Positions 8,761 through 63,695 of a DNA stretch of 64,000 bases are shown piece after piece. How positions within the stretch are numbered: the first letter of the stretch is position 1; each line of letters opens with the position of its first letter. The notes under the pieces were generated by a model. It ran no database searches. It was given only the letters and a program-made list of their open reading frames with translations, and was not told where the DNA came from. Made by a program: the position numbers and the translations under genes. Source of the stretch: a virus (Duplodnaviria; Caudoviricetes); IMG/VR virus record IMGVR_UViG_3300005683_000038, positions 7,465 to 71,464 of that record; one strand, 5' to 3'.

Positions 8761-9855
8761 TTATTCCTCGAACTGAATCAGCCGGCCTTGTTCTTCAATC
8801 ATTCCGGACATGGCTTCCCGGATCGTGGCGAAGCGTTTGCGGGCTTCCTCGCGAACGTTGGGGAAATCGCGCAAGGCTTGCGCCTTGAGCTTGCTATTGC
8901 CCTGCTGGTCAATCAGCGCGGCGCGGGCCTGCGCAATTACCTGTGTCATGCGCTCGTCACCGAACATGTTGCGGCTGTCGAACGTGTTCAGAAACTCCAT
9001 GACGTTGCCTATCATGGAATCCCGGAACACCTTGGGCTTTTCACCGGGCGCCGTGGTCAGCCGGTCTTCGGCGTGCTTGATTAGGTCAAGAAACTCCGTG
9101 CGCAATGCCTGTTCGATCTGTTGCGCGGCGTCCTCCATGCGGCGTTTGAATTTCTCCTGAGCTTCGGCCTTGAGTGCGTCCGGGATATTCTCCGGGACAG
9201 AGAGCGCCATCCAATACCATTCCACATTAAACGTTGCTTGGAGCGCTTCCGCTTCGGGGTAATCCGCTTCCCGGAATAGCGGCCCAAGTCCGCCTTCCTT
9301 AACGCTCTGGCGGGCGCGTTCGATGTCTTCCGGATAGCCTTTAATGAAGTCGGCAAGCTCGTTGTTCTGGATGGCCTGCCAGCCGTCGCGAATCATAACT
9401 TCAACCTCGGCAACGCTCTCCTGCTTGCAGACGAACATGCCAGATCGGAAATAGCTTGGCATGGCCTTGGACTCAACGCGCTTTTTCAACTGGTTCATGG
9501 CCGCGCGCAAGCGGTCGTAGTTCTTGGAGCGGATAAGGGTCTTTGTGGACTTCACCCGGTCTGAGGCAAGGAACACTGCCGGCTCGGCCTTGAGTTCCAA
9601 GGCTTCGCTGCCGTCGCTTTCGCCGGCTTCCGCCTTGGCCTTGGCCTCGGCCCGGGCGGCTTTCAGGTCGTTGATGTACTGCTCCAGCGCTTTCACGTCG
9701 CTGACTTTGACGCTGTTTCCCCAGCGGGAAAGCGTGATGGCAAAAAGAACCGTCGAGCGGAACTTTTCGAGGTTAATGACTGTCACCTTGCCCCGCTTGG
9801 GGGCGGCAACGGGGTTCGCGGGCGTAGTGCCCGGAAGTGTGTCTTGTTCTGGCAT
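8761..9855 (-). CDS. DUF3150-like protein
   Basis: ITLSRWG..KV, ADYP, FRDSMIGNVMEFLNTF..RN pattern; next to DUF2997/DUF1257/AAA genes. Confidence 0.6.
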   Translation of the reverse strand: MPEQDTLPGTTPANPVAAPKRGKVTVINLEKFRSTVLFAITLSRWGNSVKVSDVKALEQYINDLKAARAEAKAKAEAGESDGSEALELKAEPAVFLASDRVKSTKTLIRSKNYDRLRAAMNQLKKRVESKAMPSYFRSGMFVCKQESVAEVEVMIRDGWQAIQNNELADFIKGYPEDIERARQSVKEGGLGPLFREADYPEAEALQATFNVEWYWMALSVPENIPDALKAEAQEKFKRRMEDAAQQIEQALRTEFLDLIKHAEDRLTTAPGEKPKVFRDSMIGNVMEFLNTFDSRNMFGDERMTQVIAQARAALIDQQGNSKLKAQALRDFPNVREEARKRFATIREAMSGMIEEQGRLIQFEE

Positions 9856-9897: not shown

Positions 9898-10104
9898 TTA
9901 GTGATGCAAGTGGTCATGTCCGTGCTCGTGGCTATGCAGGCCAAGCGTGCCGTGTTTGTGCTTGGCTTCCACCTTGCCCCCGGCAAGGCGTGCGCTTTCA
10001 CGCATGAACTGTTCAGCGCTCAAATGGTTGGCGGCGCTGATGCGGTTGGTTTCGGATTTGATCGTGCCATCGGGCAGGATCGTGATTTTAACTTGGTCGG
10101 CCAT
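9898..10104 (-). CDS. DUF2997-like small protein with His-rich tail
   Basis: KITILPDGTIKSET start; C-terminal HKH..LHSHEHGHDHLHH. Confidence 0.7.
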   Translation of the reverse strand: MADQVKITILPDGTIKSETNRISAANHLSAEQFMRESARLAGGKVEAKHKHGTLGLHSHEHGHDHLHH

Positions 10105-10111
10105 AAAAGGA

Positions 10112-10417
10112 TTATCGTTTTACCATGACGTATTCATTTTGCTTCCCCGGCACGGGATTAAGCTGCCAGCCGTTTTTCTTCGCCGTCTGCCTGACTACCT
10201 GCGTCGAGTAAGCCCGTTTCAATTCGTTGACTTCCCGGTTGCGGTTGAACTGGCCAACGCCGGTCTTGCAATTGAGCGATTCGTTGCCGAAAAAAATGGT
10301 GTGCCCGTCGCTATGCAAGCGCGGGGACAGTCCCAATTCGGTGAGTGCGGCCAGCATCGTCGGCGGGTCGCATTTGTCGAGGGCGACTCCTACGAGCCGC
10401 AAAGTGTCACACGGCAC
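10112..10417 (-). CDS. DUF1257/Ycf35-like protein
   Basis: LAALTELG...LKRAYS..VVRQTAKKNGW; context. Confidence 0.7.
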   Translation of the reverse strand: MPCDTLRLVGVALDKCDPPTMLAALTELGLSPRLHSDGHTIFFGNESLNCKTGVGQFNRNREVNELKRAYSTQVVRQTAKKNGWQLNPVPGKQNEYVMVKR

Positions 10418-10468
10418 CTTGCCCTCCCTTGCTCCGTTTTTGGTATTCTTTCATATATCGTTTCAACA

Positions 10469-11977
10469 TCAAGCGAGGGTGAGCGCGCGGCCAAGGTCAA
10501 GCGCTTTGGTTGTGTCGGTTTCTTGGTTGTAAATTCCCACCGTTGCGGCGGAGATAAAGCGCCCGCTGGCCTCACTGCGCAACGCCTCCATTTTCGCCGT
10601 ATTGGCGCGGGCCACGGGCACCACGGACTTGGCGGCGTCCAGCAGGCTGCAATTGAACAGCCAAGCACGATGACAGCAGGATTCGATTTCACGGCCAACC
10701 CAGCGCCGGGCGTCGGGCTGCGGATCGCTGGCGGGAATCTCATAGCGCTTGCGGTAAAGCTGCCAGAGCGCGGCGGCTTCCTCAGTGGTCGGGTAATCGT
10801 AGAAGAATACCCCCAGCTTGAAGCGGGAAAGAATTTCCGGCGTGAGATTGGCCAAGCTGTTACACGTCGCAATCAGGAGCGTGCTTTCCTGCGTCACGCT
10901 GTCAACGGTGCGCAGGAGCTTCCGCATGTTCTGCTCCGACTCGCCAACGAGCGAGCCTTTGACCGTGGACATGCTGCCACGCAAAAGGGGAACTTGTGCC
11001 TCACCGGCAACGCAAGCGGCGGTGTGCGACTTGCCAGCGCCGGGGATACCCAGCAACAGGACGGCCATGACTTTCTTCGCTTCCGTCCAGTAAAGAAATT
11101 GTTCGATCATAGCTTGCGACGTGCCGCTAAGATCACCGCCACCGCCGGCAATCATCTTTTCGATTTCGTCCAAAAAGAACACGCCGCGAAAGCGCTGCCG
11201 GCCTTTGATGAGTCGCCCGAAAAAGTCTTTCGCGCCGAACGTGCCGGCCAAGTCCTTGAACGTCGTTTCCGGCTGGCTGATTTCCAAGCCGGCGGTGTTC
11301 TTCAGGCTGGCCACTTTCAATTCCCACAAGCGCCGGGTATTTATGCCTTCCTTGGTCGTGGCCAGCGCCAAGCTTTGCTCAATGGCAAAGAGGGACAAGT
11401 AACCGGTCAACGTGTCCGTGATGCGCACGCGTTCCTCGGGGCTGGGTTCGGGGTAATCGGCCTTGGCTTTGCGTGCGTCGGCAAGGGCGCCGTCAATCTT
11501 GGCGGCAATGTCGCCAGCGGTCGGGGCGGGTTCTTCAAACACGGGTACGTCGTTGGCCAATTCCGGGGGCATGGGTAGCGCCGGCCCCAGCAAAATCAAC
11601 GTGGTGCCAACGGCCTTGAGCGGGTCGCGACAATTCCAAAACGCTTGGAGGGCGGTGTAATCCCGAAAGGCGGCTTGCGCGTTGTGAATGAAGATGGAAC
11701 AGCGCTGCGGCTGCTTCTTGGCAATGAGGTCCAGACAGGCAACCAAGTTTTGCGTCTCTGCCGGATCGCCGATTTCCTTGGCGACTTCGGCGGCGGCTTT
11801 TTCGATGGGGGTCAAGCCTTGGATGCAATCCCACTGGAGGAAATAGTCCGGACGCCCGTTGCGCGTGGCGCCGCAACTGCGAATGGTGGCTGCCGGGTCG
11901 GCGGTTTCCACGGCAATGATGGGCACGCCCAGATTGCGCGCCTGCTTGAATGGGTGTTCTTTGAATGTTGTTTGCAT
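10469..11977 (-). CDS. Ycf46-like AAA+ ATPase with permuted Walker motifs
   Basis: TFKDLAG, FFLDEIEK (res 267-274), GIPGAGKS (res 310-317), SLVGESEQNMR, LIATCN, SRF. Confidence 0.9.
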   Translation of the reverse strand: MQTTFKEHPFKQARNLGVPIIAVETADPAATIRSCGATRNGRPDYFLQWDCIQGLTPIEKAAAEVAKEIGDPAETQNLVACLDLIAKKQPQRCSIFIHNAQAAFRDYTALQAFWNCRDPLKAVGTTLILLGPALPMPPELANDVPVFEEPAPTAGDIAAKIDGALADARKAKADYPEPSPEERVRITDTLTGYLSLFAIEQSLALATTKEGINTRRLWELKVASLKNTAGLEISQPETTFKDLAGTFGAKDFFGRLIKGRQRFRGVFFLDEIEKMIAGGGGDLSGTSQAMIEQFLYWTEAKKVMAVLLLGIPGAGKSHTAACVAGEAQVPLLRGSMSTVKGSLVGESEQNMRKLLRTVDSVTQESTLLIATCNSLANLTPEILSRFKLGVFFYDYPTTEEAAALWQLYRKRYEIPASDPQPDARRWVGREIESCCHRAWLFNCSLLDAAKSVVPVARANTAKMEALRSEASGRFISAATVGIYNQETDTTKALDLGRALTLA

Positions 11978-12073
11978 GGTCTTGATTTACTCGGTTTCGT
12001 GTTGTCAATCGCGGGCAGGAAAACGCCCGCTGCCAGATATACTAGCAACGGGCTTGATGGTGTCAAGGATGGA

Positions 12074-23462: not shown

Positions 23463-25229
23463 TCAGTCTTCGGGTGGTGGCTCTAACTCAGGCTGGGCGG
23501 GGGTTTGTGGAACGTCTGCTTCAGTAATTTGAGAACGTTCGGTGATAATCATTCTGCCGCCATCAAAGTTACACTCTACCTCAGTGCCGCTTCCGCCTTT
23601 GGTGGCTTTCAAAACTTTCAGGTGCATCAAAGAGTAATCCTCGGAATCACGCCACGCCCCAATGACAACGCCGGCTGAGTTTTCAAGCGCTCCAGAGTCT
23701 TTTGCGGAATGCAGTGACAGTTTTTCCGGCTGTCTATTGCCGCCGCGAGCATCAGCTTTTGGGCGGGCTACCTGAGAAGCAACGACAATGATCGTTTTGG
23801 TTGCTTTGGCCAACACCTTCAATCCCTCGGCAATATCGGAAGTTCGCTCGTATCGGCTGGTGGATTTTCCGCGCATCAATTGCACATAATCAATCAGCAC
23901 CAGTTGTGGCTTGGCGCCCATTTTTAGCTCGGCCTTTACGATAAGCTGTTCCATTCGGTCAATGGTCAGGCCGGACTCAGGGCAGATAAGCAGCTTCTCA
24001 AACAAGCGATTCAATGCGGTGGCGCCTAAAAATGTTCCGGCACGATAATCCGATTCTACGTCAGTGGCGCTGGCGTTGACTTCGTTTCGGCTGGCAACAA
24101 ATCGCTCGAACAGCAATTCCTCCGGAAGCTCCATCTCGAACACGATTGTCCACAGATTGCGGGCGCTGTTGGCTATGTTCTGAAGCAGCGCAGTTTTCCC
24201 GGCGCCGGTATCTCCTATCAACAGCGCAACCTCTCCGGGAATCAGCGGACGCACGCGCCGGCCAAGAGTGGGGAGCCAGTTGGAAAAGTTGAGAGCAACA
24301 TCAGATTGCCTCTGCGCTTGCAGCGCGTACTTAGGCTCAATGTCCGCCATTGTGTAGAGTGGAAGCTTCACACCGTCAACGAACGGAACCGAAGCTAGCA
24401 GCAACTCGTTGATGGACGATCTGGCCAAGTCGGGAGTGGCAAATGTGGCGATGTAGTCGGATATGTCTTTCGATGGTGGTGGGACTTTTACAATGCGGAC
24501 GGTTTTTGCCTTTCCAGCAATGGAATCGAATATCAACTGAACATGATCCTGACCCGGCTTGTCGTTGTCGCCACACAGAACGACATCCTTTCCGGCGAGT
24601 GATTCGGTGTAACCATCCAACCACTTTCCCGCGCCGCCGACATTGCAGGTTGCCTGAAACCCAAGCTCGGAAAGATTGTCAGCGTCCTTCTCCCCTTCAA
24701 CAATCCAGACGCGTTGCTCCTTTGTTATTGCTGGAAGCCGGTAAAGCACTCGCTCTACTCCAGTCATGTTCCAAATCCATTTCGTTCCGTCATAGCGGCG
24801 CTGGCGAAATGATTTTGGTTTCAGCCGGATCGCTTGGTAAAGCTCCCGGCCAATTGGGTCTTGGTAGGAGTAAATCTTCTCAATCTCGGATGGCTGTGTG
24901 TCCTTCTGTTTGGCATCCCCCAATTCCGCAAATGGATCGTTGTCCTCTTGTTCTTGTGATTTCTTGACAGGTTTCGCTGGCCTTGGCGGCGGCGGCGTCC
25001 AGCGTTGCGCCTTTTCCGAGAACAGGTCTTTTGGCTCCAACCCAAGCGCTCCAACAATTTCCTCAAATCGGCATCCCGCAAAGCATTTCACCAGAATCTT
25101 GCCATCAGCTGTTTGAGTTACGGACATGGACGCGGTTTTGTCCTTGTGCGCGGGGCACTTTACCATGAAGCCGCTCGCCGTCTTCTTGATCGGCTCTTCA
25201 AATCTCAGAATGAAGGCGTCAATGGTCAT
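23463..25229 (-). CDS. Primase-helicase fusion (CHC2 Zn finger + TOPRIM + DnaB-like helicase)
   Basis: CPAH..CFAGC; VEGEKDAD; GDNDKPG; GDTGAGKT; LIDYVQLM. Confidence 0.9.
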   Translation of the reverse strand: MTIDAFILRFEEPIKKTASGFMVKCPAHKDKTASMSVTQTADGKILVKCFAGCRFEEIVGALGLEPKDLFSEKAQRWTPPPPRPAKPVKKSQEQEDNDPFAELGDAKQKDTQPSEIEKIYSYQDPIGRELYQAIRLKPKSFRQRRYDGTKWIWNMTGVERVLYRLPAITKEQRVWIVEGEKDADNLSELGFQATCNVGGAGKWLDGYTESLAGKDVVLCGDNDKPGQDHVQLIFDSIAGKAKTVRIVKVPPPSKDISDYIATFATPDLARSSINELLLASVPFVDGVKLPLYTMADIEPKYALQAQRQSDVALNFSNWLPTLGRRVRPLIPGEVALLIGDTGAGKTALLQNIANSARNLWTIVFEMELPEELLFERFVASRNEVNASATDVESDYRAGTFLGATALNRLFEKLLICPESGLTIDRMEQLIVKAELKMGAKPQLVLIDYVQLMRGKSTSRYERTSDIAEGLKVLAKATKTIIVVASQVARPKADARGGNRQPEKLSLHSAKDSGALENSAGVVIGAWRDSEDYSLMHLKVLKATKGGSGTEVECNFDGGRMIITERSQITEADVPQTPAQPELEPPPED

Positions 25230-28899: not shown

Positions 28900-30510
28900 G
28901 TGAGCGTGCTGAATCCATCTCTCGAACAGGTACCGGCCGCTACCAGAACCAAACTGGCAGCGGCCGTTAATCGTGCCAAGCGGATCCTAGCCAAACGGTA
29001 CTTCTACGAATTCGTTCAGCAAGCCTGGCACGTCCTTGAGCCAGAGAAGGAATACAGTGACAACTGGCACATCAAAGCTCTGTGCGAGCACCTCCAAGCG
29101 ATATCTGAGGGGAGAATAACCAATGTCATTATCAACGTCCCGCCGGGCACAATGAAGTCTCTCATTGTGTCAGTTCTTTGGCCGGCTTGGGAGTGGGGTC
29201 CAAATGATCGACCTGGGAAACGATTTATGTCGGCCAGTTATGCTGAACCGCTGGCAATGCGTGATGCAGTAAAGACACGTGACTTGGTTCAGAGTGAGTG
29301 GTACCAAGCACGGTGGCCGATTGAGTTGCGCGATGACATTAACGCCAAAGGCAAATACCAGAACTTAGCTGGCGGGTGGCGACTGGTTGCTTCCGTCGGT
29401 GGTAAGGGAATAGGTGAACATCCTGACTACCTGATAATTGACGATCCGCACAATCCAATCGAAATGGAGAGTGAGGCTGAGCGAAAGGCCGTAGTGGATT
29501 GGTTGGATGGTGTTATTTCTTCCCGTGGTGTAACCCGTGACGTTCGTCGCGTGGTAGTGATGCAGCGACTCCACACCCAGGACGCGAGCGGTCACCTGCT
29601 AGAAAAGCGAGACCCGGCGGGACAGCCTATTTGGGAGCATATCTGCCTGCCGATGCGTTATGAGGCACCAACGCGAGATGAAGTAACGGGATCGGTGATA
29701 TTCCGGATGCGACCGACTTCGATTGGTTGGACTGACCCGCGCACAAGAGAAGGTGAGCTGCTTTGGCCAAACCTTTACACGATGACACGAGTCGAAGCGA
29801 TGGAATCCAACATGGGGCTCTATCACGCGGCTGGTCAGCTTCAGCAACGACCGACTCCACGTGGTGGTGGTAAGTTCAAGCGGGCTTGGTTTGAGGTGCT
29901 CACCACTTGTCCGCCTTTGATTCAGGGAGTTCGTTATTGGGACAAGGCCGGATCAAAAGGAGGCACGGGCGCACGGACGGCTGGGGTGTTTATTGGTGCC
30001 TATGATGATCCGAGTGTGCCAACCAGTTCACCTCTTCGTCGCAAATACATCATCACCGACGCCCAAGGACACCGGGTAGAGGCACCTGAACGGGAGATGA
30101 TTATTAAGCAGCAGGCAACGATTGACCAGCGGTTTTATCCGGCAGTGGTGACTTGGGTTGAGCAAGAACCAGGGTCAGGAGGAAAAGAGTCAGCTCAGAA
30201 CACCGTTGCCAATCTGGCTGGTTTTACGTGCATGGCGGAGCGGGTGACTGGGAGCAAGGAAGTTCGCGCTGATCCTTTGTCGAGTCAAGCCAGCGTCGGC
30301 AAGATAAAATTGTTGGCTGGTAATTGGAACAAAGAGTTCTTAGATGAGATTGAGTTGTTTCCGCTCGGCAAACTGAAAGATTTGGTAGATGCAGCCGGCG
30401 GCGGGTTCAACAAGCTCTTCCAGCCGACGGTGTTTGTTGGGGCTGATTGGGTGCGACTTAATCCAAGTGAAGAGCGTGAGCAGTTTGAACCAGACCGATT
30501 AGATTTATGA
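28900..30510 (+). CDS. terL: Terminase large subunit
   Basis: INVPPGTMKS, LIIDDPH, MQRLH, RYWDKAG, EQEPGSGGK, DLVDA. Confidence 0.95.
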   Translation: MSVLNPSLEQVPAATRTKLAAAVNRAKRILAKRYFYEFVQQAWHVLEPEKEYSDNWHIKALCEHLQAISEGRITNVIINVPPGTMKSLIVSVLWPAWEWGPNDRPGKRFMSASYAEPLAMRDAVKTRDLVQSEWYQARWPIELRDDINAKGKYQNLAGGWRLVASVGGKGIGEHPDYLIIDDPHNPIEMESEAERKAVVDWLDGVISSRGVTRDVRRVVVMQRLHTQDASGHLLEKRDPAGQPIWEHICLPMRYEAPTRDEVTGSVIFRMRPTSIGWTDPRTREGELLWPNLYTMTRVEAMESNMGLYHAAGQLQQRPTPRGGGKFKRAWFEVLTTCPPLIQGVRYWDKAGSKGGTGARTAGVFIGAYDDPSVPTSSPLRRKYIITDAQGHRVEAPEREMIIKQQATIDQRFYPAVVTWVEQEPGSGGKESAQNTVANLAGFTCMAERVTGSKEVRADPLSSQASVGKIKLLAGNWNKEFLDEIELFPLGKLKDLVDAAGGGFNKLFQPTVFVGADWVRLNPSEEREQFEPDRLDL

Positions 30511-31563: not shown

Positions 31564-33351
31564 GTGTTGATGAGATTGCTAGGACTAACGATTGAGCGCG
31601 CCACGCCAGAGTTGATGGTTCGAGGAACCGACTTTGAGGCGCGCTCAATCGTTTCAGCCTCTCAAGAACTCCCTACCAGCAGCACCGATCTCCAGATTGT
31701 CCGCCAGCAACGCAAGGCTGGGATGCGTGGTGATGAGATGGTTGATCGGGTAGTGATGTCTGATCCGCTTGGTGATTGGTATTTGGCTTTGCCGTCAAAG
31801 CTGGAGCCGAAGCAAGTGGATTCGATCATGCGGGCTTCGCTCGCCGGCAACATTTGGCAGTTCACCCAGCTGGTGCAGCGGATGATGGAATCGTGGCCGA
31901 TGTTGAAGAAATGCTCACATGAGTTGCGCCAAGCGGTGTCACGGGTCAAATACACCGTGGTTCCATTTGTTGAGAAAGAAGGAGAAGATCCGACTCCAAC
32001 CTCCGTCGAGAAGTCTGATACCGTGGCCCGGGCGATGCGGTCGTTTGAGATTGATCGCTTTTCAGATGAGGAGAGTTTTAACGGGTTGGTGTATGACATA
32101 ACCGACGCGGCGATTGTCGGGCTCTCCATCAGCGAAATCATGTGGCATCAGCAGGCTGATCCGGCGGGCACATTGGAGTGGTTGCCGCGGGCCAGTGCTT
32201 ATGTCCATCCGCGCCTCTATGCGTTTTCAAGCGACGGAAAGATAGGAATTGGTCGAAGCAACACGGATGATCCGATGTGGCAGCAGGTCCAAGCGGCCAA
32301 GCCAGTGTTGAACAATCCGATGAAATACATCGTAGCCAAGTTCAAATCAGGCAGCGGGTCCTGTCTGAAGAACGGGTTGGCGCGGTCGTTGTGCTGGTGG
32401 TGGGTGGCGGTGGTTTACGGACGTGACTTTGCATTGTCCTTCGCTCAGAAATTTGGCGGGCCGTTCCTCGACATTCCCTACCAAAGCGGTATTCCCAAGG
32501 AGGACATTGATAGACTCGAACGGCTCGCCAAGCGAGCTGCCAATCTCGGTTACTGCGTCCATCCAAATACGGGTGAAGTTAAGGTGACACCGGCTCAAAG
32601 CATGGGCGGTGAGAATCCACAAGTGGTGTTGATGCGGATGGCGGATGAGGCGTGTCAGATTCTGTTGCTGGGCCAGACGGCTTCGACCATGGGCACGCCA
32701 GGGATGCTCGGACAAGAGAATTCACGTGAGACGGTCCGCCGGGAGTATGTGGAAGGGTTTGCTGCTTGGGTGGCTGAGATCCTGACTGAGCAGTTTGCTT
32801 GGACGGTGGTGAAGCAGAATTATCACTTGTCCAGTGCGGTTACGGAACGACCGAAAGTCATTGCTGATTTCACCGAGACAGAAGACCCCATGCAGGCAGC
32901 GACGCGCTGGAGCACATTGCTTCACACGGGTCAGCCGTTCCATGCTGATGAGTTTTATGACGGGGTTGGTGCTCGTCAGCCCGAAGAAGGCGACAAAGTC
33001 GTCGTTGGTCAGAAGATTGGAACGATGGGGCCAGACGACTTCATTGTTACTGGCCAACCTGATTACGGTTACGGGTTTGATGACTGGGGCAATCCTATTC
33101 CTCCGCCTGAGATGCAGCAGATGGGGATGGTGCCTGGGCAAACGATGGGCGAATTCAACGGTCAGCAGATGATGGCACGCGATTCTCAGGTCCGTCGTGC
33201 GTTATCTCGCGCATCTCTCAGCGAACTCAACGCTCTGCGGGCAAAGGCTGCGGCCTGTGTCAAAGCGCGAGAGACAGGACACATCAACGGAGAGCACAAC
33301 GAATTTATCGCGGCCCTGCGCCAATTACAAGTCAACCATTCAAGACGATGA
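31564..33351 (+). CDS. Portal protein, DUF935/Mu gp29 family (true start may be downstream)
   Basis: DAAIVGLSISEIMW, GLARSLCWWW, FAQKFGGP, LLLGQTAST; position after terL. Confidence 0.85.
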   Translation: MLMRLLGLTIERATPELMVRGTDFEARSIVSASQELPTSSTDLQIVRQQRKAGMRGDEMVDRVVMSDPLGDWYLALPSKLEPKQVDSIMRASLAGNIWQFTQLVQRMMESWPMLKKCSHELRQAVSRVKYTVVPFVEKEGEDPTPTSVEKSDTVARAMRSFEIDRFSDEESFNGLVYDITDAAIVGLSISEIMWHQQADPAGTLEWLPRASAYVHPRLYAFSSDGKIGIGRSNTDDPMWQQVQAAKPVLNNPMKYIVAKFKSGSGSCLKNGLARSLCWWWVAVVYGRDFALSFAQKFGGPFLDIPYQSGIPKEDIDRLERLAKRAANLGYCVHPNTGEVKVTPAQSMGGENPQVVLMRMADEACQILLLGQTASTMGTPGMLGQENSRETVRREYVEGFAAWVAEILTEQFAWTVVKQNYHLSSAVTERPKVIADFTETEDPMQAATRWSTLLHTGQPFHADEFYDGVGARQPEEGDKVVVGQKIGTMGPDDFIVTGQPDYGYGFDDWGNPIPPPEMQQMGMVPGQTMGEFNGQQMMARDSQVRRALSRASLSELNALRAKAAACVKARETGHINGEHNEFIAALRQLQVNHSRR

Positions 33352-33856: not shown

Positions 33857-36800
33857 ATGCCAGCTTGGTTAAATCAGACAGATGAAGGGAAGTGGGAGAC
33901 GGCTAAGAGTGCCGTCCTCAAGTCGTGTCAGGAGACTGATCCGGCTTTTCTTCCTTTGGTTACTGCCGTCTTCCGAAAGATGGGTGGGGTGGTGGCTGAC
34001 GATGCCGTGATGGCGAGTTGGTCGGATGCGGCAAGGGAGGCTGCGGCGGAAGCTCGTAGGAATGGTTCTCATGCTTGGAAAAAGGATGAGGAGGCATTTA
34101 ATGCGACAGTGAATTTGGCTTCAACCGGTGGTAGTGCGGAATCACACCAACGGGCGGCTGATTTGCACAAAGTGGCATTGGCAGCTCATCAATCGGCTGC
34201 TTCAGAAAAAGGGCCTGAGACGGATAGTCATTCTTTTCGTGCTGACATCCATAAAGAATACATTCAAAAGCATGAAAAAGAGGCCGCCGGGTTCAAGTCG
34301 GGCGGTCATGTCGTTTTCCAAGGTGATGCCGCTTCCCTTCCGCACCCTTCTCCGTCTAATGAAAAAGACAAATACGGTTTTACCGTATTTAATCAAGGGA
34401 AGGTTTACACCCCAAAGCATTTAGAAGGTCAGGTGGACAAGCATTACCGGTCCAAGGGATATACAAAGAATCGAGACAGGTCGAGGGGAGGCAGCTGGGG
34501 ACCAGCGACATATACTCGGAATGGTGCTCGTGTGTCAGTCCATTCCATTCAAGGTGATTCTACTAAAGCATCTGATGTTTCATTTGACGATGCCGTGATG
34601 GCGAGTTGGAGTGAGGAAGCCAGACAGGCAGCATTGGAGAAGCGACGTGAGTTGAAGAGCCAGCACAACGGCAAAGCCGGAATTGATTTTATCGCACCAC
34701 ACGGATCACCAGGCCATTTCATGGCGGTGGTAAAAGACAAGAGCCGATTGTCGGAAGCGGCTGAGCACCTGGAGGACGCTGGTCATACTGTGACGAAAGT
34801 CCACTCTGGTGATGAGAATACCCATCCTGCTGTTCATTTTACACCGAAAGGTGAGGCGGCGGCTGAGGCGAGGAGTCGAACCACATCTGCTTATCGCAAA
34901 ATGGCTTCTCATGCTTTTGAGGCATCTGATGAAGCTGATCGAGCAACTGCCTCTGCACATGGTCGTTTTTCTAGTCGATCCAACCATGAGTTAGCAGCCA
35001 ATATGCACCGGCAGGCGGCTCTTCACCATAGTCAGAACTATGATGAAATGAGTGAAGGAAGCGGGATGCGAAAAGGAGCAGGTGACATGATTGACTACCA
35101 TGAGAATCAAGCTAAGAAGCATGACCGATTGGCAAAAGGTAGTTCTACCAAAGCAAGTGACCCAACTGGAGATGAATTCATGAGTGACACAATTAAGGCG
35201 AGTTGGTCTGATGCGGCTCGTGAAGCCGCTGCGGCGAGTCGGAAGGCGCACATGGAATCGGCTGAGGCATCTGGATCAACTGATTTCAGTCTGCACCGTG
35301 CGGCAACAGACGCGCATCGAGAGGCAGATGATGCTCATCGAAATGCGGCGAATCAAGCTCGAAAAGAAGGTAAGAATTGGAAGTACCACAACCGCCAAGC
35401 TCGTCAACACGAGGCATTGGCAAACCATCACTCAGACCTCGCTGAGGAGTATGATTCCAATGGTGCTGAATCTTCAGATGCTGGTGGTACGTCATTTCAT
35501 GACGATTCTCCCGCCAAGGCGACAGAGCAATTGGCAAGTGAACGCAATATGATCACCGCCCGCGATCCAATCGTTCGTTGCCGCGATTATGGCTTTGCTC
35601 TTTCCAAGTCGGTCAAGGCGAAGAAAGTTTGGAAGCCGGGTGAGCAAGTGGACTTCCAGTGGATGCCGGGTGGGGTTCATGCAATTACTGCCTCGTATGG
35701 CCGAGGTGATCGCAATGTGCCAATTGAGTTGTGGGTCCATTGCAATGAAGCTGGCGCCCGTCGGGTTCAGCAGTCATTCGAGCAGATCATGGCAACGAAT
35801 TCGCGCCGTCCTCCTTTCATTTGCATTGAGCACCAGGCGAAGGAACGGGCCGGGCAGCCGGTTGGTTTTAAGTGGGGCGTAATTGAACATGACCAAGGCA
35901 GTGACACTGGCATCATTTGCACTTGCGACCCGTCAGCCCTCGGAGCCAACAATGTCAACGGCAAGATCCATACCTCGTTCAGTCCGACGTTTGACACTGA
36001 TGCCGATTACTCTCAATTGCGTTGCACTGGTTGCGCGAAGGACCGTAACGGTTGCCAGTGCGCTTCGCCACATGCCTTTGCCTTTGCCCGTGGGGCCCGT
36101 GGCAGCCAGGAGAATCCAGCAGAGGTGACTCGGCTCGATGCTCAGTCAGTTGGGTCGTTAACGAACTGGAATGCGTTCAAAGAGATTTTGCCGATTGCTG
36201 CCCGTGAACCTGAAACGGTGAAAGCTGGCGGCACGAGTGAGGGTGCGAAGAAGGGGTGGGAGCATCGTGGAAACATTGCCCATGATTTGAGTGCAAAAGC
36301 CGATATCGCAGAACAAGAGGCCGATGACTCTGCTACGATCAAAACATATAGAAAAGCAGCGGATATTCACCATAAGGCTTCAAGGGCTCATCGCGAGGCC
36401 GCAGACGCTGCGAGTGAAGAGGGCTACAAAGATGCGGCGACAGTCCATGAACAAGCGGCAAGTTTTCATTACCGCAAATCAATAGGTTTGCACGCAAAAG
36501 GTGATTCTGTCAAATCTCGTCAGCCTACTACCGCCGCCGAGAATCCCAATCCTGTCTTTGCGACGTATCCAGACCTGGCGTTGGCGAGTGTGAAGGCTGA
36601 TGAGGCTGAGGCAAGTGTGAAGGCGACTTGGTCCGATGCGGCGAGGGAGGCTGCGGCGGAAGCTCGTAGGAATGGTTCTCATGCAGGTGGCGATGAACAC
36701 GATAGTTCAAGTGAAGGGAGGTTATTAAACCAACCCTTGTCTCCTGCATTCAAGTCTCATGTTATTGAGCATTTGAAAAATCATATAGGAATACACGCGC

Positions 36801-37660
36801 CAGAGAAGGTTACGGTGAGAAAGAGTTCTGATGTAGAAGGGACGGTCGTCACTCTACATCATGCTGGTAAACGGCATTCATACTACACACCGCATGAAAA
36901 TATGTCGACTTTTACGAAAGAAAAAGAAGGCCAACATTGGATTAAGGCAAGTGATCTAAATGAAGACAATTCCTTCGCCATCATGCAGGCCCATGCCGAA
37001 GTGATTGTCCAGGCTGAGTTGGCAATGGTGAAGGCCCAGGAAACCAACAACCGCGATGACGTCCAGGCTTTGCGTGAGTTGATTAAGGCATCGAATGGGA
37101 AGATTCTGGAGCATGGTGAACAAGTGACTGACACTATTTTCACTCGTGCGTTGAAGTCAGACGCAGCGGTCCGGGCCATTGCTTTGCGGGTTGAGCCGGT
37201 TGATGACAAGTTTGAAGACACTGAGACGGTATTTGCCCGGTTGGCCGAGCGAGTGGCCGAGACGAACCGTTTACTGGAAGGGAAAGCGGCCTTGCCAAAG
37301 ACGGACGATGACATGGTGCGTGAGATCATGGCGCGGACTCATAATCCAGCCGAGAACGTGACGGCGACTGGTACGAGTGAAGGTGCGGAAAAGGGGTGGG
37401 AGCATCGGATGAGATTGAGTGAAGAGGCTCATTATGCCACGAAAATTGCTCTAGGTGCTCGTGGGAGTATCAATGAAGATGCTTTGTATAAAGAGGCAAG
37501 AGACAGGCATACTGACGCGGCAAAGGCATATCGTTCAGCTTCTTCTGAGAGTCGTCTTGTAAAAGAAGACAATGAAGGACGAGCGAAAGAGCATGAGGCA
37601 CTCGCAGCCCATCATCAACAGGTGATGGATAACGTAAGAGGCTACAAAGTGGGTGATTGA
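33857..37660 (+). CDS. Giant prohead maturation protease (Mu gpI-like core) with repeated cargo modules
   Basis: Core DFQWMPGG...FICIEHQ...HTSFSPTF...GSLTN; lies between portal and MCP; ChaB-like N-terminus. Confidence 0.75.
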   Translation: MPAWLNQTDEGKWETAKSAVLKSCQETDPAFLPLVTAVFRKMGGVVADDAVMASWSDAAREAAAEARRNGSHAWKKDEEAFNATVNLASTGGSAESHQRAADLHKVALAAHQSAASEKGPETDSHSFRADIHKEYIQKHEKEAAGFKSGGHVVFQGDAASLPHPSPSNEKDKYGFTVFNQGKVYTPKHLEGQVDKHYRSKGYTKNRDRSRGGSWGPATYTRNGARVSVHSIQGDSTKASDVSFDDAVMASWSEEARQAALEKRRELKSQHNGKAGIDFIAPHGSPGHFMAVVKDKSRLSEAAEHLEDAGHTVTKVHSGDENTHPAVHFTPKGEAAAEARSRTTSAYRKMASHAFEASDEADRATASAHGRFSSRSNHELAANMHRQAALHHSQNYDEMSEGSGMRKGAGDMIDYHENQAKKHDRLAKGSSTKASDPTGDEFMSDTIKASWSDAAREAAAASRKAHMESAEASGSTDFSLHRAATDAHREADDAHRNAANQARKEGKNWKYHNRQARQHEALANHHSDLAEEYDSNGAESSDAGGTSFHDDSPAKATEQLASERNMITARDPIVRCRDYGFALSKSVKAKKVWKPGEQVDFQWMPGGVHAITASYGRGDRNVPIELWVHCNEAGARRVQQSFEQIMATNSRRPPFICIEHQAKERAGQPVGFKWGVIEHDQGSDTGIICTCDPSALGANNVNGKIHTSFSPTFDTDADYSQLRCTGCAKDRNGCQCASPHAFAFARGARGSQENPAEVTRLDAQSVGSLTNWNAFKEILPIAAREPETVKAGGTSEGAKKGWEHRGNIAHDLSAKADIAEQEADDSATIKTYRKAADIHHKASRAHREAADAASEEGYKDAATVHEQAASFHYRKSIGLHAKGDSVKSRQPTTAAENPNPVFATYPDLALASVKADEAEASVKATWSDAAREAAAEARRNGSHAGGDEHDSSSEGRLLNQPLSPAFKSHVIEHLKNHIGIHAPEKVTVRKSSDVEGTVVTLHHAGKRHSYYTPHENMSTFTKEKEGQHWIKASDLNEDNSFAIMQAHAEVIVQAELAMVKAQETNNRDDVQALRELIKASNGKILEHGEQVTDTIFTRALKSDAAVRAIALRVEPVDDKFEDTETVFARLAERVAETNRLLEGKAALPKTDDDMVREIMARTHNPAENVTATGTSEGAEKGWEHRMRLSEEAHYATKIALGARGSINEDALYKEARDRHTDAAKAYRSASSESRLVKEDNEGRAKEHEALAAHHQQVMDNVRGYKVGD
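34012..36684 (+). repeat. Dispersed coding repeats (WSDAAREAAAEARR family)
   Basis: 34012-34074 vs 36622-36684 identical at 60/63 nt; 33998-34021 = 34586-34609; further diverged copy near 35200. Confidence 0.9.
36230..37407 (+). repeat. Dispersed coding repeat GTSEGA(K/E)KGWEHR
   Basis: Copies at 36230-36267 and 37370-37407. Confidence 0.9.
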
Positions 37661-40724: not shown

Positions 40725-42749
40725 ATGAATGTGCTTTCTTCTACTTCTATTCGCATTGGCCATCTTGCTCGGAATTTGGCTTGGAATGCGAAGCCGGCTG
40801 TGACGGCATCTTCGCCTCCCCCGCCGGTTGATCCCATGTTGGAAGATCCATCTAAGTTGTTCCGGTTGCTGGATGAAGAATTGATTGTGCGTGAAATGAT
40901 CACGGCAGTCGGTCGCGATACTTCAGTTTCAGTCAAAGCCACTCTCAAAGATGCCAATGGCGATGTCTTGCTTTTGAAAGATGTCCGAACAGGCAATTGG
41001 GACCTGCCCGGCGGTCACAAGCAGGAAGGTGAAAGCGATTACCGAGCCCTTGTCAGGGAGATAAAGGAAGAGACGGGGCTGGACGTGGCCAGTGTGACGT
41101 TTGTCAAGCAGATGCCAAAAGCAATCTTCTATGATGTGTTGGTTACGGGTGTTCGGCCGGCGGTAGTTTTAAGCAACGAACACACTGATTTCAAGTGGGA
41201 ACAGCCAGGTCGTGCAAAGCATGACGCGGCCTATTGGACGGGAGGTTATCTCGTGCATGATCTCACGCGAGACCAGGCGCAGATCAGTGTCACTAATGCC
41301 GTCCGGCGCATTGTAGCATTGGCTGAGACAGACGTGATCTCGGGCCGAGACAACCCCCATTATGAGGATGATGCTGCTTTGATCTTCACCGCCGCGTTGG
41401 CCGCTGCTTACGGTGTAGCGGTGATGAAGATGGACAAAGAGGTTCGGCAAGTGAACCAAGGCGATAAGACGACTAGGGTAGAAGACAGGATCTTCGCTCA
41501 TAGTCGGATTGATGACTTGCGCGGATTCATCCAGGACGTGAAGGAACGTCTGAAAGATACTGCCCGCACTTTGCCGGTTGAGGAGAAAAACACGGTTGAA
41601 CGGGCTCGGCGGGTTCACGCTGAAGGAGATGCCATTCTCGACGGAGCCGGCAAACGAGTGTCTGAGACAGAGTCCCAAATCATTTACGGACATTCGGTTC
41701 TGCGAGCTCTCCAACGGGCCGGTTATACCAGCGCCTATTGGGTGACGATGGGAGATGAACGAGTGCGCGATTCCCATAATGAGTGTGAAGCGGCCGGTGC
41801 CATCCCACTAGGCCAACCGTTTCCAAATGGTCTGCTCTTTCCGGGCGATGCTGAGCACGGTGGCCCAGAGGAAATTTGCAACTGCTTCCCAGCTGATACA
41901 CTTGTGCAGCTTCCTGGTTTACGAGCAGTCACCCGTCAAAGGTACAAGGGCGATCTCGTTGAGTTGCGATTTGCCAGCGGCCGCTGTCTCTCCGCTACGC
42001 CGAATCACCCGATATTGAGGGGTGACGGTAAGTGGATTCCTATTAACCTCTTCAACGAAGGTGATGATTGCATCAGCTGTGAGATTGGTAGGGAGCTCCC
42101 CAGCCAGCCATACAAAAATACAACACCAACCAAGATTTCCAAGGTCTACGACCTTCTTAATTCGATGGGGGTGTCTAAACGGAAAGTCGCATCCCCGATG
42201 GACCTCCACGGCGATGCGACCGATACTCAAATCGAGGTTGTATCCATAAAGGGGAGTTTGTCGGACCACATGGGGATTCCGAAGAATGAGCAAATTATAG
42301 AGTTCGGCTTCGCCCTTGCCAACATTACGAAGAAGAGATTGTTTAACGAAGGAGGAAGTGAGACATCGTTTATGCCCCCATTTCGATCGTTCGGATTCAA
42401 TGAAAGGATGGTTGGTTCTTCTGGCGATGTTGGCAGCTTGTGCGTATCTTCTCTTTTGTTCCGTTGTCCTTCCATTGGCGAGGAGTTGATTGGCTTCTTG
42501 GCTTCCTCTCAAGATGACACCAACATTCATCAATCGATTGCTAATTGTCCATCGGCTGACTTTGAACAACTCCGCCAAGAAATTTATACTTTCCCCTTTA
42601 GTATAACGTTGGACAAGGTCGTTGGTATCAAGCGGTATTTTTTTCATGGTGAGGTATTTAATTGTGACACAGGAGCAGGATACTACACCGCCAATGGTAT
42701 AGCAACGCAAAATTGCCGATGTTGGCTTGAAGGAGCATCAAAGCGATGA
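40725..42749 (+). CDS. Nudix hydrolase-MuF (phage minor head protein) fusion containing an intein
   Basis: Perfect Nudix box GGHKQEGESDYRALVREIKEETGL; MuF WVTMGDERVRDSH...FPGD...ICN/CRC. Confidence 0.9.
   Translation: MNVLSSTSIRIGHLARNLAWNAKPAVTASSPPPPVDPMLEDPSKLFRLLDEELIVREMITAVGRDTSVSVKATLKDANGDVLLLKDVRTGNWDLPGGHKQEGESDYRALVREIKEETGLDVASVTFVKQMPKAIFYDVLVTGVRPAVVLSNEHTDFKWEQPGRAKHDAAYWTGGYLVHDLTRDQAQISVTNAVRRIVALAETDVISGRDNPHYEDDAALIFTAALAAAYGVAVMKMDKEVRQVNQGDKTTRVEDRIFAHSRIDDLRGFIQDVKERLKDTARTLPVEEKNTVERARRVHAEGDAILDGAGKRVSETESQIIYGHSVLRALQRAGYTSAYWVTMGDERVRDSHNECEAAGAIPLGQPFPNGLLFPGDAEHGGPEEICNCFPADTLVQLPGLRAVTRQRYKGDLVELRFASGRCLSATPNHPILRGDGKWIPINLFNEGDDCISCEIGRELPSQPYKNTTPTKISKVYDLLNSMGVSKRKVASPMDLHGDATDTQIEVVSIKGSLSDHMGIPKNEQIIEFGFALANITKKRLFNEGGSETSFMPPFRSFGFNERMVGSSGDVGSLCVSSLLFRCPSIGEELIGFLASSQDDTNIHQSIANCPSADFEQLRQEIYTFPFSITLDKVVGIKRYFFHGEVFNCDTGAGYYTANGIATQNCRCWLEGASKR
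41883..42713 (+). mobile_element. Intein (277 aa) in the MuF NCRC motif
   Basis: C1 CFPADT, block B TPNHPI, C-terminal VFN...ANGIATQN followed by Cys+1. Confidence 0.9.
41919..42647 (-). CDS. Antisense intein-nested HTH + DUF559/Vsr-like endonuclease
   Basis: Y..GES...LA..F.VSR.TI..RL HTH; E..LY.LL...Q..L.GYNLDL...IAVEV...LG..GW..IFVW. Confidence 0.8.
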   Translation of the reverse strand: MKKIPLDTNDLVQRYTKGESINFLAELFKVSRWTISNRLMNVGVILRGSQEANQLLANGRTTEQKRRYAQAANIARRTNHPFIESERSKWGHKRCLTSSFVKQSLLRNVGKGEAELYNLLILRNPHVVRQTPLYGYNLDLSIGRIAVEVHRGCDFPFRHPHRIKKVVDLGNLGWCCIFVWLAGELPTNLTADAIITFVEEVNRNPLTVTPQYRVIRRSGETAAAGKSQLNEIALVPLTGDCS

Positions 42750-49205: not shown

Positions 49206-49441
49206 AAGGGGCAAATCCACTTCCGAGAATAGGGCTTCCTCGATTGCATGAAGGATCAGGATTGCGATCTGGACGAGACAGTGATGTGACGGCGAAACTT
49301 TGGCAGAAGGTGCTCCCAGTTGATCAGCAACTCTATCGAGCTTGCCAGGCAATTGAGGAATTGCAACGCCAGTTGAATCGTTTACGTCGTCGATCTGGTG
49401 GTGAGAGCATAGGAGGAAAGGATCCGGTATGGCTGCCGTAA
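49202..49441 (+). CDS. Small coiled-coil tail protein
   Basis: ATGA overlap; IEELQRQLNRLRRR. Confidence 0.5.
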   Translation: MKGANPLPRIGLPRLHEGSGLRSGRDSDVTAKLWQKVLPVDQQLYRACQAIEELQRQLNRLRRRSGGESIGGKDPVWLP

Positions 49442-52400
49442 GGTTGCTGGCGGGCGGGGAGCAGGCCTCGTATTCGTATGTGCGCGACCTGTGGCGGGAG
49501 TTCGACTCGAAACTGTCACAGATGCTTTCTGGGAAGTCTTTCCTTGTAGGTCAGTTTGGCAAGGGTGACTCCGACCTGGGCGCGATGTCGGCGAAGTTGA
49601 TGGGGAAGTGCTTCTTCTTTACGTCTGGGGATACGCGCTACGTGAACAACGCGCCGGGTTTTATTGCGGATGGCGGAGGGGCGCGCAATTACGATCACAC
49701 CCAGTTCGAGCTGGCGCTGGCGGCGGTGGTGGTGACGGACTGGGATGAGGTCAACAAGGTGGCGAATATCGAGCGGGTGGATGGCTCGTGGTATGCGGGT
49801 TTGCCGCAGGAGGAAGCGGTGGGGTTCTTCGAGCACAGCCTGGCGGTGCATTCGATTCCACACACGGGGGCTGGTGATTCCGGGGACGTCCCGTATTACG
49901 TGCGGGAGGCGGCGATTGGGTATCTGCATCCACCGCCGGAAAAGCGGCTGCGCTACGGCCTGGCGGAGATTTTACTCGAAGGCGTGACGACATTGGTGTT
50001 GCCAGGGACGAGCAAGTACGACTGTTACCGGCTGCACAATTTGAATTTTACGGAAGCGACGGTGGAGCTGGCTGGGGAGACGGAGAATCTGACGGTGACA
50101 CTGGCGGCGTTTGATTGCCGGACGGTGCGGCGCCAGCGGGACGGAAATTTCGAGTTAACGGGTTGGCACTATTTTTTCCCGCCGCGGGGGGCGGAGACGT
50201 TTCCGCGGGGGGATCCGCGGTTGCCTTGGTTTCTGCCGACCAAGACGATTGATGCGGCCAACGACATCAATGACACGTATGTCAGCGCGGAGCAGGGCCG
50301 GGCGGCGAATTCGATGGCGGCGAACAACCTGACGAATCCCAGCATCATCTGCGATTGGGTGAACCACTTTGACCCGGAGAATCGCAAGGCGGATTACGCG
50401 CCGTGCCTGCATCGGGACCGCGACGCAACGGGAGCGGAGGAGGACATCAGTGACAAGTATCTGGAGTTGTTCGGCGATCCGGGCGACCCGGCGACGTTGC
50501 TTGGGGACCTACTGCACCACAAGGGGCGCATCGTCATCATCCGCAAGTCGCTCACGGAAACGGACCCGCTGACGAGCCAGCCGGTTATCACGCGGGACGA
50601 GGTGACGTTCAACGGGTATGCGACCATTGTGGCCGATTTCGCGGAGAAGCTGTTGAGTGTGACGGAGGACGTGGACGGCAATCTGGTGATTGACAACGAC
50701 GACCCGGACAACGACGTGGACCTGTTGCCGATCGGGACGAATCTGTTCAAGACAGGCGAGAGTTCGCCGACGATTGTGACGCTGCCCCATACCATCGAAG
50801 CGGCGGTATTTGAAACGACGGAGGCGGGCGGCCTTGGTGGTTACACTTTGTCGGCCACGGCGGACAACGTGGTGCAACAGCGCAGCGTTGCGGAGACGAC
50901 GGACGTGAAGCACGAATACATCATGGAGGCGGACGGCGATATTGTGGCCCATGATTACACGGCGACGGACACGGAGAAGGTGATGAGCGGGGCGTTGACG
51001 CGCTCCGCCGCGCGGGTGATGGCGGGGATTCATGCGGTGACCGTGGCGGACCTGTTGGACTTGTCCTGGTGGGGCGACGACGCGTTACCGAACCAGAGCA
51101 ACGACTGGGTGACGTTCAGCAACGTGCGGCTGTTGCTGACGTGGGAGGGTTTGGTGTTGCGCTTCACGGAGAGCATCGCCGGGTATCCCAACCTGGAGGC
51201 GGATTATTTGTCGGGCCGGCGATTCGGTGGCGCGAAGGAGCGGAGGATTTGGTTTCGCTCGCACGGCTGGCCGTATCATTCACCGACGCTCGGCGGGTGG
51301 ACGACGGGCTGGCTTTCGCCGCGCAAGGGACGGTTCACAACGTCGGTGGATTACGATGCTGAGGAGGTGGGATTATCGGGCGCGGACTTCGCGGTGTCGC
51401 GGTTGAGAGTGACGGAGCAAGCCATCACCGTGTTGCGGAGGATTCGGAACGCCTCGACGCTGGCCTCGCAGGGGGATACCTGGCTCGCGACGCCGAACGC
51501 TCGTTTCTGGCACGCCCGGTTCATGGACAATTTTTTGCTCTGGCTGGAGGAAGGTCAGTCGGATGCCGGCTACTGGAATATCCGCAGCTATCTGCTCGCC
51601 CCGCAGGATTTCACGGACGATCCGGCCGCCTCCAGTGATTTGTTTGTGTGCATGGCATTGCTGCCGGAGCATTACAACGCGCTGGCGACGACAGTTAATT
51701 CTCTGACGTCGGCGCTGCCCTTGAATGCGTTCTCGCTGCGCTGGGTGATTGGTGGGGATGTCTGCTGGCTGCCAGAGATGGGGCGTTACAGCAATGTGGG
51801 GAATAGCAATCCGGTGCCGATCACGGAATGGACGGAAGTGCCGGCGTCGAGCGACAGCAACTTTGATATTTTGCTCGCGGAGTTTGGGGTGACAATCCGG
51901 GACAAGACTGATTTGCCGTCGTGCCCGGACACGTTGACGGTGAAGTATAACATCAACGAGGGCATCTCCATCACCGCCGACAACTTCAGCGGGCCAGACG
52001 GCAGCGGTTACATGACGGGGGATTTGCACTTGAGTCTTTCGGTGGAGGACAACACGGAATGGTACTACTCGACGGCCAACCCACTTTATCCGACCGATGC
52101 GGATTTGGACCCGTTCCGCTACATCCCGGTGGGCGGGCCAAACATGCAGACGGGGTACGATGACTACAACTGGGTGACGATTGAGGACATCAAGACGACG
52201 TTTGGCCAGTGGGGAATTCCGGTGCTGGGCGTCCAGGTGTGCAAGCCGCTGAACCTGGTGGAGTTCTCGCGGGCGGACGCGACGTTCAACTGGAGCAATC
52301 TGGGGCCGGTGGACGATTCTTTCAGCATCATCGCGGATGTGATTCCCGATCCGCTGCCGTCGCTGGCGGAGGGGAACGACAATTTTATTCCGCTGGAAAC

Positions 52401-53004: not shown

Positions 53005-53075
53005 TTTCTTATGTTGTAGAATGATACATGAGGTGTAATATGAACTTGAGACAGATAAACGGACACCATGTCCTT

Positions 53076-61221: not shown

Positions 61222-61250
61222 GATTTGCATATCTGCTTGTTATGCCTCAC
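61222..61250 (+). other. Cassette left boundary: GTTRRRY core site without a full attC (attI/secondary-site-like)
   Basis: GTTATGC at 61239-45; GTTATGCCTCAC is the reverse complement of GTGAGGCATAAC at 63570-81. Confidence 0.6.
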
Positions 61251-63636: not shown

Positions 63637-63695
63637 AGGATCAGGATTCCAATTCCCGGTTAGCCCCGGCGCGTCGCTGATGCGCATCGTTCGGC
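63575..63695 (+). mobile_element. Integron attC site (A)
   Basis: R'' GCATAAC, 5 nt, L'' CATGCAGT ... L' GCTGATG, 6 nt, R' GTTCGGC; extrahelical bases in canonical positions. Confidence 0.85.

Follow-up and report, generated by a model that had tools for sequence, protein, structure and literature searches.

We analysed a window of 64,000 nucleotides (nt), corresponding to positions 7,465 to 71,464 of the IMG/VR record IMGVR_UViG_3300005683_000038, a tailed-phage genome that is part of a 71,464-bp virus record. An uninterrupted open reading frame (ORF) on the minus strand of this window (10469..11977) encodes P0001, a 502-residue, Ycf46-like tandem AAA-type ATPase with a permuted active domain. 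Taken as a whole, the data make it highly probable that P0001 is a real and, by prediction, most likely active AAA ATPase in which one core β-α unit, the Walker B strand with its following helix (β3-α3), has been moved to a position ahead of the Walker A strand (β1).

The order of the motifs can be read directly in the translation. Along the chain, P0001 shows TFKDLAG, VFFLDE, GIPGAGKS, KGSLVGESE, LLIATCN and SRF. Specifically, the helix α0 motif TFKDLAG (residues 238-244, nt 11246-11266) is followed by Walker B (VFFLDE, residues 266-271, nt 11165-11182), then by IEKMIAGGGGDLSGTS and a helix that stops near residue 300, and Walker A (GIPGAGKS, residues 310-317, nt 11027-11050) appears 44 residues downstream of Walker B. 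Pore loop 1 maps to residues 340-348 (KGSLVGESE, nt 10934-10960, with VGESE at 344-348), sensor-1 lies in LLIATCN at 367-373 (N373, nt 10859-10861), and SRF at 384-386 contains the invariant R385 (nt 10823-10825). In P0001 no second hhhhDE segment is found after Walker A, and the chain following the GESE helix enters the sensor-1 strand directly. The first-pass annotation of this DNA had proposed that Walker B precedes Walker A, the two blocks being swapped intact in an uninterrupted ORF; the translation bears this out, and the coordinates and residue numbers then given, including K316 and E271, are exact. It had also expected crossed alignments with canonical proteins, and these were indeed obtained with each of the four references described below.

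As a relative with the canonical order, we considered the 525-residue protein of the Streptococcus satellite phage Javan368, with which BLASTP returned two crossed matches. The first aligns residues 305-478 of P0001 to residues 272-502 of the subject, leaving a gap in the query at 362/363; the second, aligning residues 266-307 to subject residues 332-376, fills that gap with 42% identity (E 2e-6). The same pattern emerged with the profiles. PF00004 is found on P0001 in three pieces, its positions 1-54, 54-95 and 87-126 falling on residues 306-359, 260-301 and 353-389, respectively. The phage family profile phrog_8638 is found in four, with positions 33-285 on residues 18-252 (E 1.1e-4), 367-405 on 266-302, 307-365 on 305-363 and 408-540 on 366-479. 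A crossed match with P0001 is also given by the canonical-order protein of the Desulfosarcina variabilis locus L040. Because the comparisons with the Javan368 protein, PF00004 and phrog_8638 cross, two adjacent blocks (residues ~262-302 and ~303-363) are, at the level of sequence, exchanged, with the remainder of P0001 colinear.

P0001 carries the features of the classic-clade AAA proteins (PF00004), namely Walker A, Walker B, the sensor-1 asparagine, the arginine of the second region of homology and a C-terminal lid (helices 398-470), while the linear order Walker A, Walker B, sensor-1 that goes with them is not found; in precomputed tables PF00004 is marked 'weak' for such proteins. The best named match of P0001 in both PADLOC and NCBIfam is the anti-phage ATPase IetA/IteA of the IetAS defence system, yet P0001 is not a member of that family. 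The match covers only the Walker A block (residues 299-357) and scores 38-40 bits against a cut-off of 510 bits, and no IetS protease partner is seen near the P0001 gene.

It is possible, though in our judgement unlikely, that the arrangement is real but already catalogued as a known variant. The literature searched consists of open-access papers and bioRxiv, and databases label such proteins just 'AAA family ATPase' or 'ycf46'. In that full-text literature, however, we found neither an account of an AAA or AAA+ protein in which Walker B precedes Walker A nor any mention of this permuted family, and the literature on AAA+ permutation, Ycf46, DUF1257, DUF2997 and DUF3150 yields none either, in agreement with the first-pass annotation, which knew of no such arrangement described in AAA+ proteins. 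In addition, Pfam covers P0001 only as broken pieces of PF00004. The general idea has precedent, since a permuted motif order is known in the circularly permuted GTPases YjeQ/RsgA, YlqF/RbgA and YqeH, P-loop nucleoside triphosphatases with a non-standard motif order and a preserved three-dimensional fold. These belong to the TRAFAC class and show a true circular permutation, G4-G5-G1-G2-G3. In P0001, by contrast, an internal unit is transposed within a core of the additional-strand catalytic glutamate (ASCE) type, to which AAA belongs, and the domain termini are unmoved. As read from the alignments, the change is the transposition of one β-α unit (β3-α3) to a position before β1-α1-β2-α2, not a circular permutation.

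The permuted order is a constant property of the homologues. All 254 that were aligned share Walker B before Walker A, a point that the first-pass annotation had proposed to check, and E271, K316, G313, N373 and R385 are each conserved in 254/254, as are an acidic residue (D/E) at position 270 and S/T at 317. In the pore loop, V344 is found in 239 and G345 in 253 of the 254. A second Walker B after Walker A, which had been named as an observation that would speak against the proposal, is absent: hhhh[DE]E between helix α2 and sensor-1 occurs in 0/254 homologues. A word-indexed search gave 421 matches, and an exhaustive search gave 945 cluster representatives (50% identity) at E<=1e-30. As the analysis covered the top-ranked homologues of each search, the number of permuted members is a lower bound, and rare intermediates may have escaped notice. 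Of the best 150 of 4718 matches of the exhaustive search, to which the inspection extended, most are near full length, the shortest being clearly truncated. None of the proteins examined shows Walker A flanked on both sides by a Walker B, as a duplication intermediate would. The sole cultured carrier found is the Tunturiibacter phage Tunturi_3, whose gp103, annotated 'ATPase', has the same motif order.

A structural model of P0001 was obtained with AlphaFold2 from a 126-sequence alignment, with a mean predicted local distance difference test (pLDDT) of 94.2 and a predicted template modelling score (pTM) of 0.89, and its secondary structure was assigned with DSSP. The active domain contains exactly five strands (265-269, 304-310, 331-334, 366-372 and 389-393), with pLDDT of about 97 around strand 265-269, and helices at 247-257 (α0), 286-300 (α3), 316-327 (α1), 346-362 (α2) and 380-383, followed by the lid. 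On the minus strand of the window, the linker strand and helix α0 (247-257), with the subsequent G...PR loop, occupy residues 226-261 (11195..11302), as defined by DSSP and the alignment consensus. The transposed block, comprising β3 with Walker B, the pore-loop-2 region and helix α3, follows at residues 262-302 (11072..11194), and then β1 with Walker A, α1, β2, pore loop 1 and α2 at residues 303-363 (10889..11071). Directly after α2 come β4 with sensor-1 N373, α4, R385 and β5 (residues 364-396, 10790..10888), and finally the C-terminal helical lid (residues 397-485, 10523..10789), which in the model aligns to those of Vps4 and p97 D2. All three junctions are loops immediately before strands. 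Residues 229-473 of the model superpose on Vps4 and p97 D2, lids included, with Z 16.6-16.7 and a root-mean-square deviation (rmsd) of 2.5-2.7 over 200-204 of ~245 residues; the residues left unaligned are about as many as the moved block contains, as is to be expected of an aligner that depends on sequence order.

Covariation points to the place of the moved strand in the sheet. Mean-field direct-coupling analysis (DCA) was carried out on residues 226-400 with 254 homologues (effective number of sequences, Meff, 210). The strongest pair overall is 265-362, and pairs 267-334, 264-363, 267-368, 267-366 and 272-370 set strand 265-272 between β2 (331-334) and β4 (366-372). The register is parallel and puts E271 at the height of about residue 370, with sensor-1 N373 three residues further on. 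Further pairs (268-317, 268-320, 268-321 and 267-358) pack the two faces of the moved strand on α1 and α2, and helix α3 finds partners at 337, 340, 348, 351, 359, 368 and 379. By covariation, then, the moved strand would occupy the canonical Walker B position, between β2 and β4. The suggestion that the rewired topology is plausible is thus well supported by a five-strand model in which the upstream strand is needed to complete the sheet, together with its covariation with β2 and β4.

Because the strands of the AAA+ fold are ordered 5-1-4-3-2 in the sheet, the rewiring would require only three new loops (α0-β3, α3-β1 and α2-β4), each new connection ending one or two strands from its original target and all crossovers remaining right-handed. 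The chain would accordingly run α0, β3, α3, β1, α1, β2, α2, β4, α4, β5 and lid, while the sheet in three dimensions would still be the normal 5-1-4-3-2, with the moved strand between β2 and β4 and D270/E271 probably presented beside the P-loop and sensor-1.

Some points weigh against this reading. DCA and AlphaFold2 rest on one alignment and are not fully independent, and DCA does not separate contacts within a chain from contacts between chains. P0001 has a serine, S384, where 144/254 homologues carry a second arginine. Moreover, the adenine-contacting loop, canonically before β1, now stands before β3, and nucleotide binding could be altered; in the alignment consensus the G...P-R loop lies before β1 in the canonical relatives and before the Walker B strand in the permuted proteins.

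Were the upstream hhhhDE segment to lie outside the active site, as a linker element or a relic, P0001 would be a pseudo- or regulatory ATPase devoid of Walker B, with a four-stranded core. Some AAA+ domains do lack catalytic glutamates, and the pocket geometry proposed here is a deduction. Nevertheless, we regard this alternative as very improbable. The segment specifically matches the Walker B-α3 part of the canonical profiles, and its E271 and D/E270, present throughout the 254 homologues, stand beside the equally invariant K316, N373 and R385. Its covariation with β2 and β4, which places E271 near residue 370, and the confidently modelled DSSP strand at 265-269 argue in the same direction.

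The β3-α3 unit might instead complete the sheet of a neighbouring subunit by a three-dimensional domain swap, the site being built in trans. Covariation, blind to whether a contact is made within or between chains, would look the same in that case, and permutations and domain swaps are sometimes linked in evolution. Against this, α3 ends at residue 300 and β1 starts at 304, and a linker of three residues forces the unit to lie beside its own β1, disfavouring its donation to another subunit; in addition, the monomer model is confident without any partner. We therefore give this possibility hardly any credence. A complex prediction with three copies of residues 226-502 and ATP scored 0.00, and says nothing either way on the oligomer.

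The block order is also supported at the level of the DNA. The DNA recurs in near-identical form in 16 sequencing runs, which come from about ten wastewater, sludge, soil and sediment studies, and contigs from four of these studies bridge all three junctions (~nt 11194, 11071 and 10888) without joints or indels. One activated-sludge contig spans 10400-12100 without gaps, and soil, sediment and wastewater contigs span 10400-11870, 10751-11870 and 10400-11296 with zero differences. Four RNA runs contained only 5-10% of the sampled words. An assembly or sequencing artefact, in which the order had been created within one assembly by contig chimerism or local rearrangement, could be suspected in a virus record that derives from a metagenome, lacks end repeats and has an estimated completeness of 77%, but it is refuted, as far as contigs can show, by these independent junction-bridging contigs from activated sludge, soil, sediment and wastewater, which settle the misassembly question raised at first reading, and by an order common to 254 homologues of many independent sources and to the cultured phage Tunturi_3.

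Strain differences cluster at window 11871-12059, over the 5' end of the ATPase gene and the adjoining upstream DNA, where contigs of several runs break; outside this cluster the gene is identical in the soil, sediment and wastewater assemblies. Antisense to it, a 543-residue open frame runs along the plus strand (9947-11578) and is most likely a by-product of high G+C, not a gene.

The full model superposes on the D1 and D2 domains of p97, Cdc48, NVL and Drg1 (Z ~17, 397-404 residues, rmsd 5.0-5.7), and Foldseek matches it to tandem AAA proteins with E ~1e-10 to 1e-11. Because the superposition extends over both domains, residues ~9-225 (11303..11953, minus strand) are predicted to form a degenerate, D1-like AAA domain with its own helical lid, and P0001 can be described, from the model, as a tandem AAA protein whose first domain is a pseudo-ATPase and whose second, active domain is permuted. 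The first domain is without a P-loop, showing VETADPAAT after its first strand. The likeness to the Type II tandem AAA proteins (p97/VCP, Cdc48, NVL/Rix7 and Afg2/Drg1) lies in the D1+D2 layout and in the classic-clade motifs VGESE, ATxN and RF; P0001 differs from them in an identity of 13-15%, in the P-loop-less first domain and in the core connectivity, and it lacks the N-terminal substrate domain of p97.

The N-terminal region is colinear with the canonical L040 protein from residue 17, where the tblastn matches to canonical loci also start. R117, P152 and G192 are invariant in this domain, and D27, W49, D50, Q111, D118 and K121 are near-invariant; such conservation points to a surface used for binding or regulation more than to a simple spacer. 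'VLILDE'-type motifs near residue 145 of some homologues were considered as a relic Walker B of the first domain and rejected, as they align to D/E-E-P-x-P at the domain's last strand and not to the β3 position.

The origin of the permuted order was addressed by scanning loci in one genome per prokaryotic species, which returned 70 loci. At identities of at least 32%, Walker B is upstream in every locus where simple patterns found both motifs; these permuted loci belong to Verrucomicrobiota, Armatimonadota, Myxococcales, Planctomycetota, Nitrospira, Gemmatimonadota, Thermotogota and others. At identities of 28% or less, the loci with both motifs found have Walker B ~55 residues downstream of Walker A. 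The canonical-order proteins are mostly ~470 residues long and come, among others, from Singulisphaera, Desulfobacterales and Cyanobacteriota, and many of their loci still align from P0001 residue 17. In the canonical L040 protein, PF00004 is found in one piece (positions 1-130).

These canonical Ycf46-like ATPases (D. variabilis L040, Singulisphaera L033 and the phage family phrog_8638) are the sisters of P0001, having in common with it the N-terminal domain of about 230-250 residues and three neighbouring genes, as well as, at 22-28% identity, the sequences of Walker A, the pore loop, Walker B, sensor-1 and the lid. They differ in having Walker B ~55 residues after Walker A, whereas in P0001 the Walker B-α3 block lies 44 residues before it. 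A maximum-likelihood tree was built from four blocks aligned separately and concatenated (71 permuted and 41 canonical rows). All permuted rows fall on one side of a branch with a Shimodaira-Hasegawa-like approximate likelihood ratio test (SH-aLRT) value of 100. The tree is unrooted; its blocks were delimited by one set of rules for the permuted and another for the canonical rows, and the junction columns were retained. Since the tree places the permuted rows on one side of this branch, one swap event would suffice, consistent with a single origin of the permuted group. We infer that the swap may have come about by duplication of β1 through α3 with later loss of the two outer halves, which is how rearrangements of this kind usually come about.

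Permuted and canonical loci have a recurrent gene module, made up of the AAA gene, which comes first, DUF1257 (Ycf35-like), DUF2997 and a DUF3150 protein of ~290-380 residues. Conservation of this four-gene module extends over phages, prophages and the genomes of bacteria from many phyla, and in the phage studied here it lies in the early region. A scan with hidden Markov models (HMMs) found the DUF3150 protein in nearly all loci, while DUF1257 and DUF2997 are readily recognised in most of the other permuted loci that include the flank, and in Tunturi_3.

In the window, all the module genes are on the minus strand. The DUF1257 position, directly downstream of the ATPase gene, is taken by a 101-residue gene (10112..10417), which resembles DUF1257 only weakly (hhalign E 4e-4; E 0.0047 with an HMM of 53 DUF1257 neighbours). 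The next gene, of 68 residues (9898..10104), corresponds to DUF2997 by position only; it gives an hhalign match of E 3e-3 over 18 columns and an HMM match (E 6.6) that is not significant, and it is 67% identical to its equivalent in locus L004. Neither protein has a Pfam match even at E 10, nor a BLASTP match to the DUF1257 and DUF2997 proteins of locus L007. The 68-residue protein ends in a His-rich tail, HKHGTLGLHSHEHGHDHLHH, which may bind metal, and the tail of the L004 counterpart is Gln-rich.

The fourth module gene (8761..9855) encodes a 364-residue DUF3150-family protein that is 30% identical (E 5e-27) to the L040 protein confirmed by Pfam as DUF3150 and 32% identical to the L007 neighbour. 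Its AlphaFold2 model (pLDDT 85.5) gave no Foldseek match in the PDB at E<=0.001, and a wide structural search returned only generic and uninformative helical-bundle matches (Z up to 9.4, residues 223-360).

All four module genes are present in Tunturi_3. Here, gp102 matches the DUF1257 HMM (E 1e-8), gp101 the DUF2997 HMM (E 1.7e-9), and gp96 (L001 9678-10637), annotated 'HNH endonuclease', the DUF3150-family HMM at E 9e-55, so that the latter annotation is probably wrong. Downstream of the module in an Abditibacterium prophage region (L005 15144-17609) lies a gene for an 821-residue cytosine DNA methylase with an intein and a LAGLIDADG endonuclease, and a gene for a reverse transcriptase (RVT_1) is found a few kb downstream of the module in a viral contig of 81 kb (L006 12874-13734). 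According to the literature, DUF2997 and ycf35 adjoin fed7 in cyanobacteria, and Ycf35 has a 'suspected' role in photosynthesis; no function for DUF1257, DUF2997 or DUF3150 was found in the searchable literature.

The remainder of the window is that of a tailed phage, with genes for the large terminase (28900-30510), portal (31564-33351), primase/helicase (23463-25229), RecT (1661-2926) and RNA ligase (940-1632). A 674-residue head protein (40725-42749, plus strand) combines a NUDIX/MutT match at residues 55-162 with head/portal-associated matches at ~190-543, an unusual fusion for a virion-associated protein. In an 815-residue protein on the minus strand (61240-63687), a DNA helicase (residues 86-492) is fused to a DNA methyltransferase (501-793). 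The structural arm contains three very large ORFs on the plus strand (33857-37660, 49429-53004 and 53028-57608), of 1267, 1191 and 1526 residues, respectively.

Altogether, the swap would have arisen once, in a family with an inactive N-terminal AAA-like domain and DUF1257, DUF2997 and DUF3150 genes alongside, and strong purifying selection would since have preserved it in a large and mainly phage-borne clade. If it behaves like classic AAA proteins, P0001 would assemble into a ring and hydrolyse ATP using E271, with R385 acting on the neighbouring subunit, and a protein substrate would be remodelled or threaded through the conserved L/I-V-G pore loop. The small module proteins are likely adaptors or substrates, the module partners being the best candidates, and for a module in the phage early region, host takeover, counter-defence and DNA transactions are candidate roles.

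The AAA+ core belongs to the best-studied protein folds, and the order in which its strands follow one another in the chain is regarded as fixed. On balance, we lean towards the broader proposition that this is the first recognised natural AAA/ASCE lineage with β3-α3 before β1, fully functional, of single origin and comprising hundreds of clusters, mostly from phages, and that it drives a four-gene machine (AAA-DUF1257-DUF2997-DUF3150) common to phages, mobile elements and the Ycf46/Ycf35 biology of cyanobacteria. If this is true, the ASCE core tolerates the rewiring of a β-α unit, with a bearing on the evolution of the P-loop fold, on folding and on protein design. The swap would also explain the fragmentary or weak AAA profile matches of these proteins, and hence their easy mis-annotation. 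Since the moved unit carries with it pore loop 2 and the region for signalling between subunits, the natural pair of permuted and canonical ATPases within one module would suit tests of how chain connectivity relates to ATPase coupling. Finally, these findings would draw attention to a widespread module linked to Ycf46 and Ycf35.

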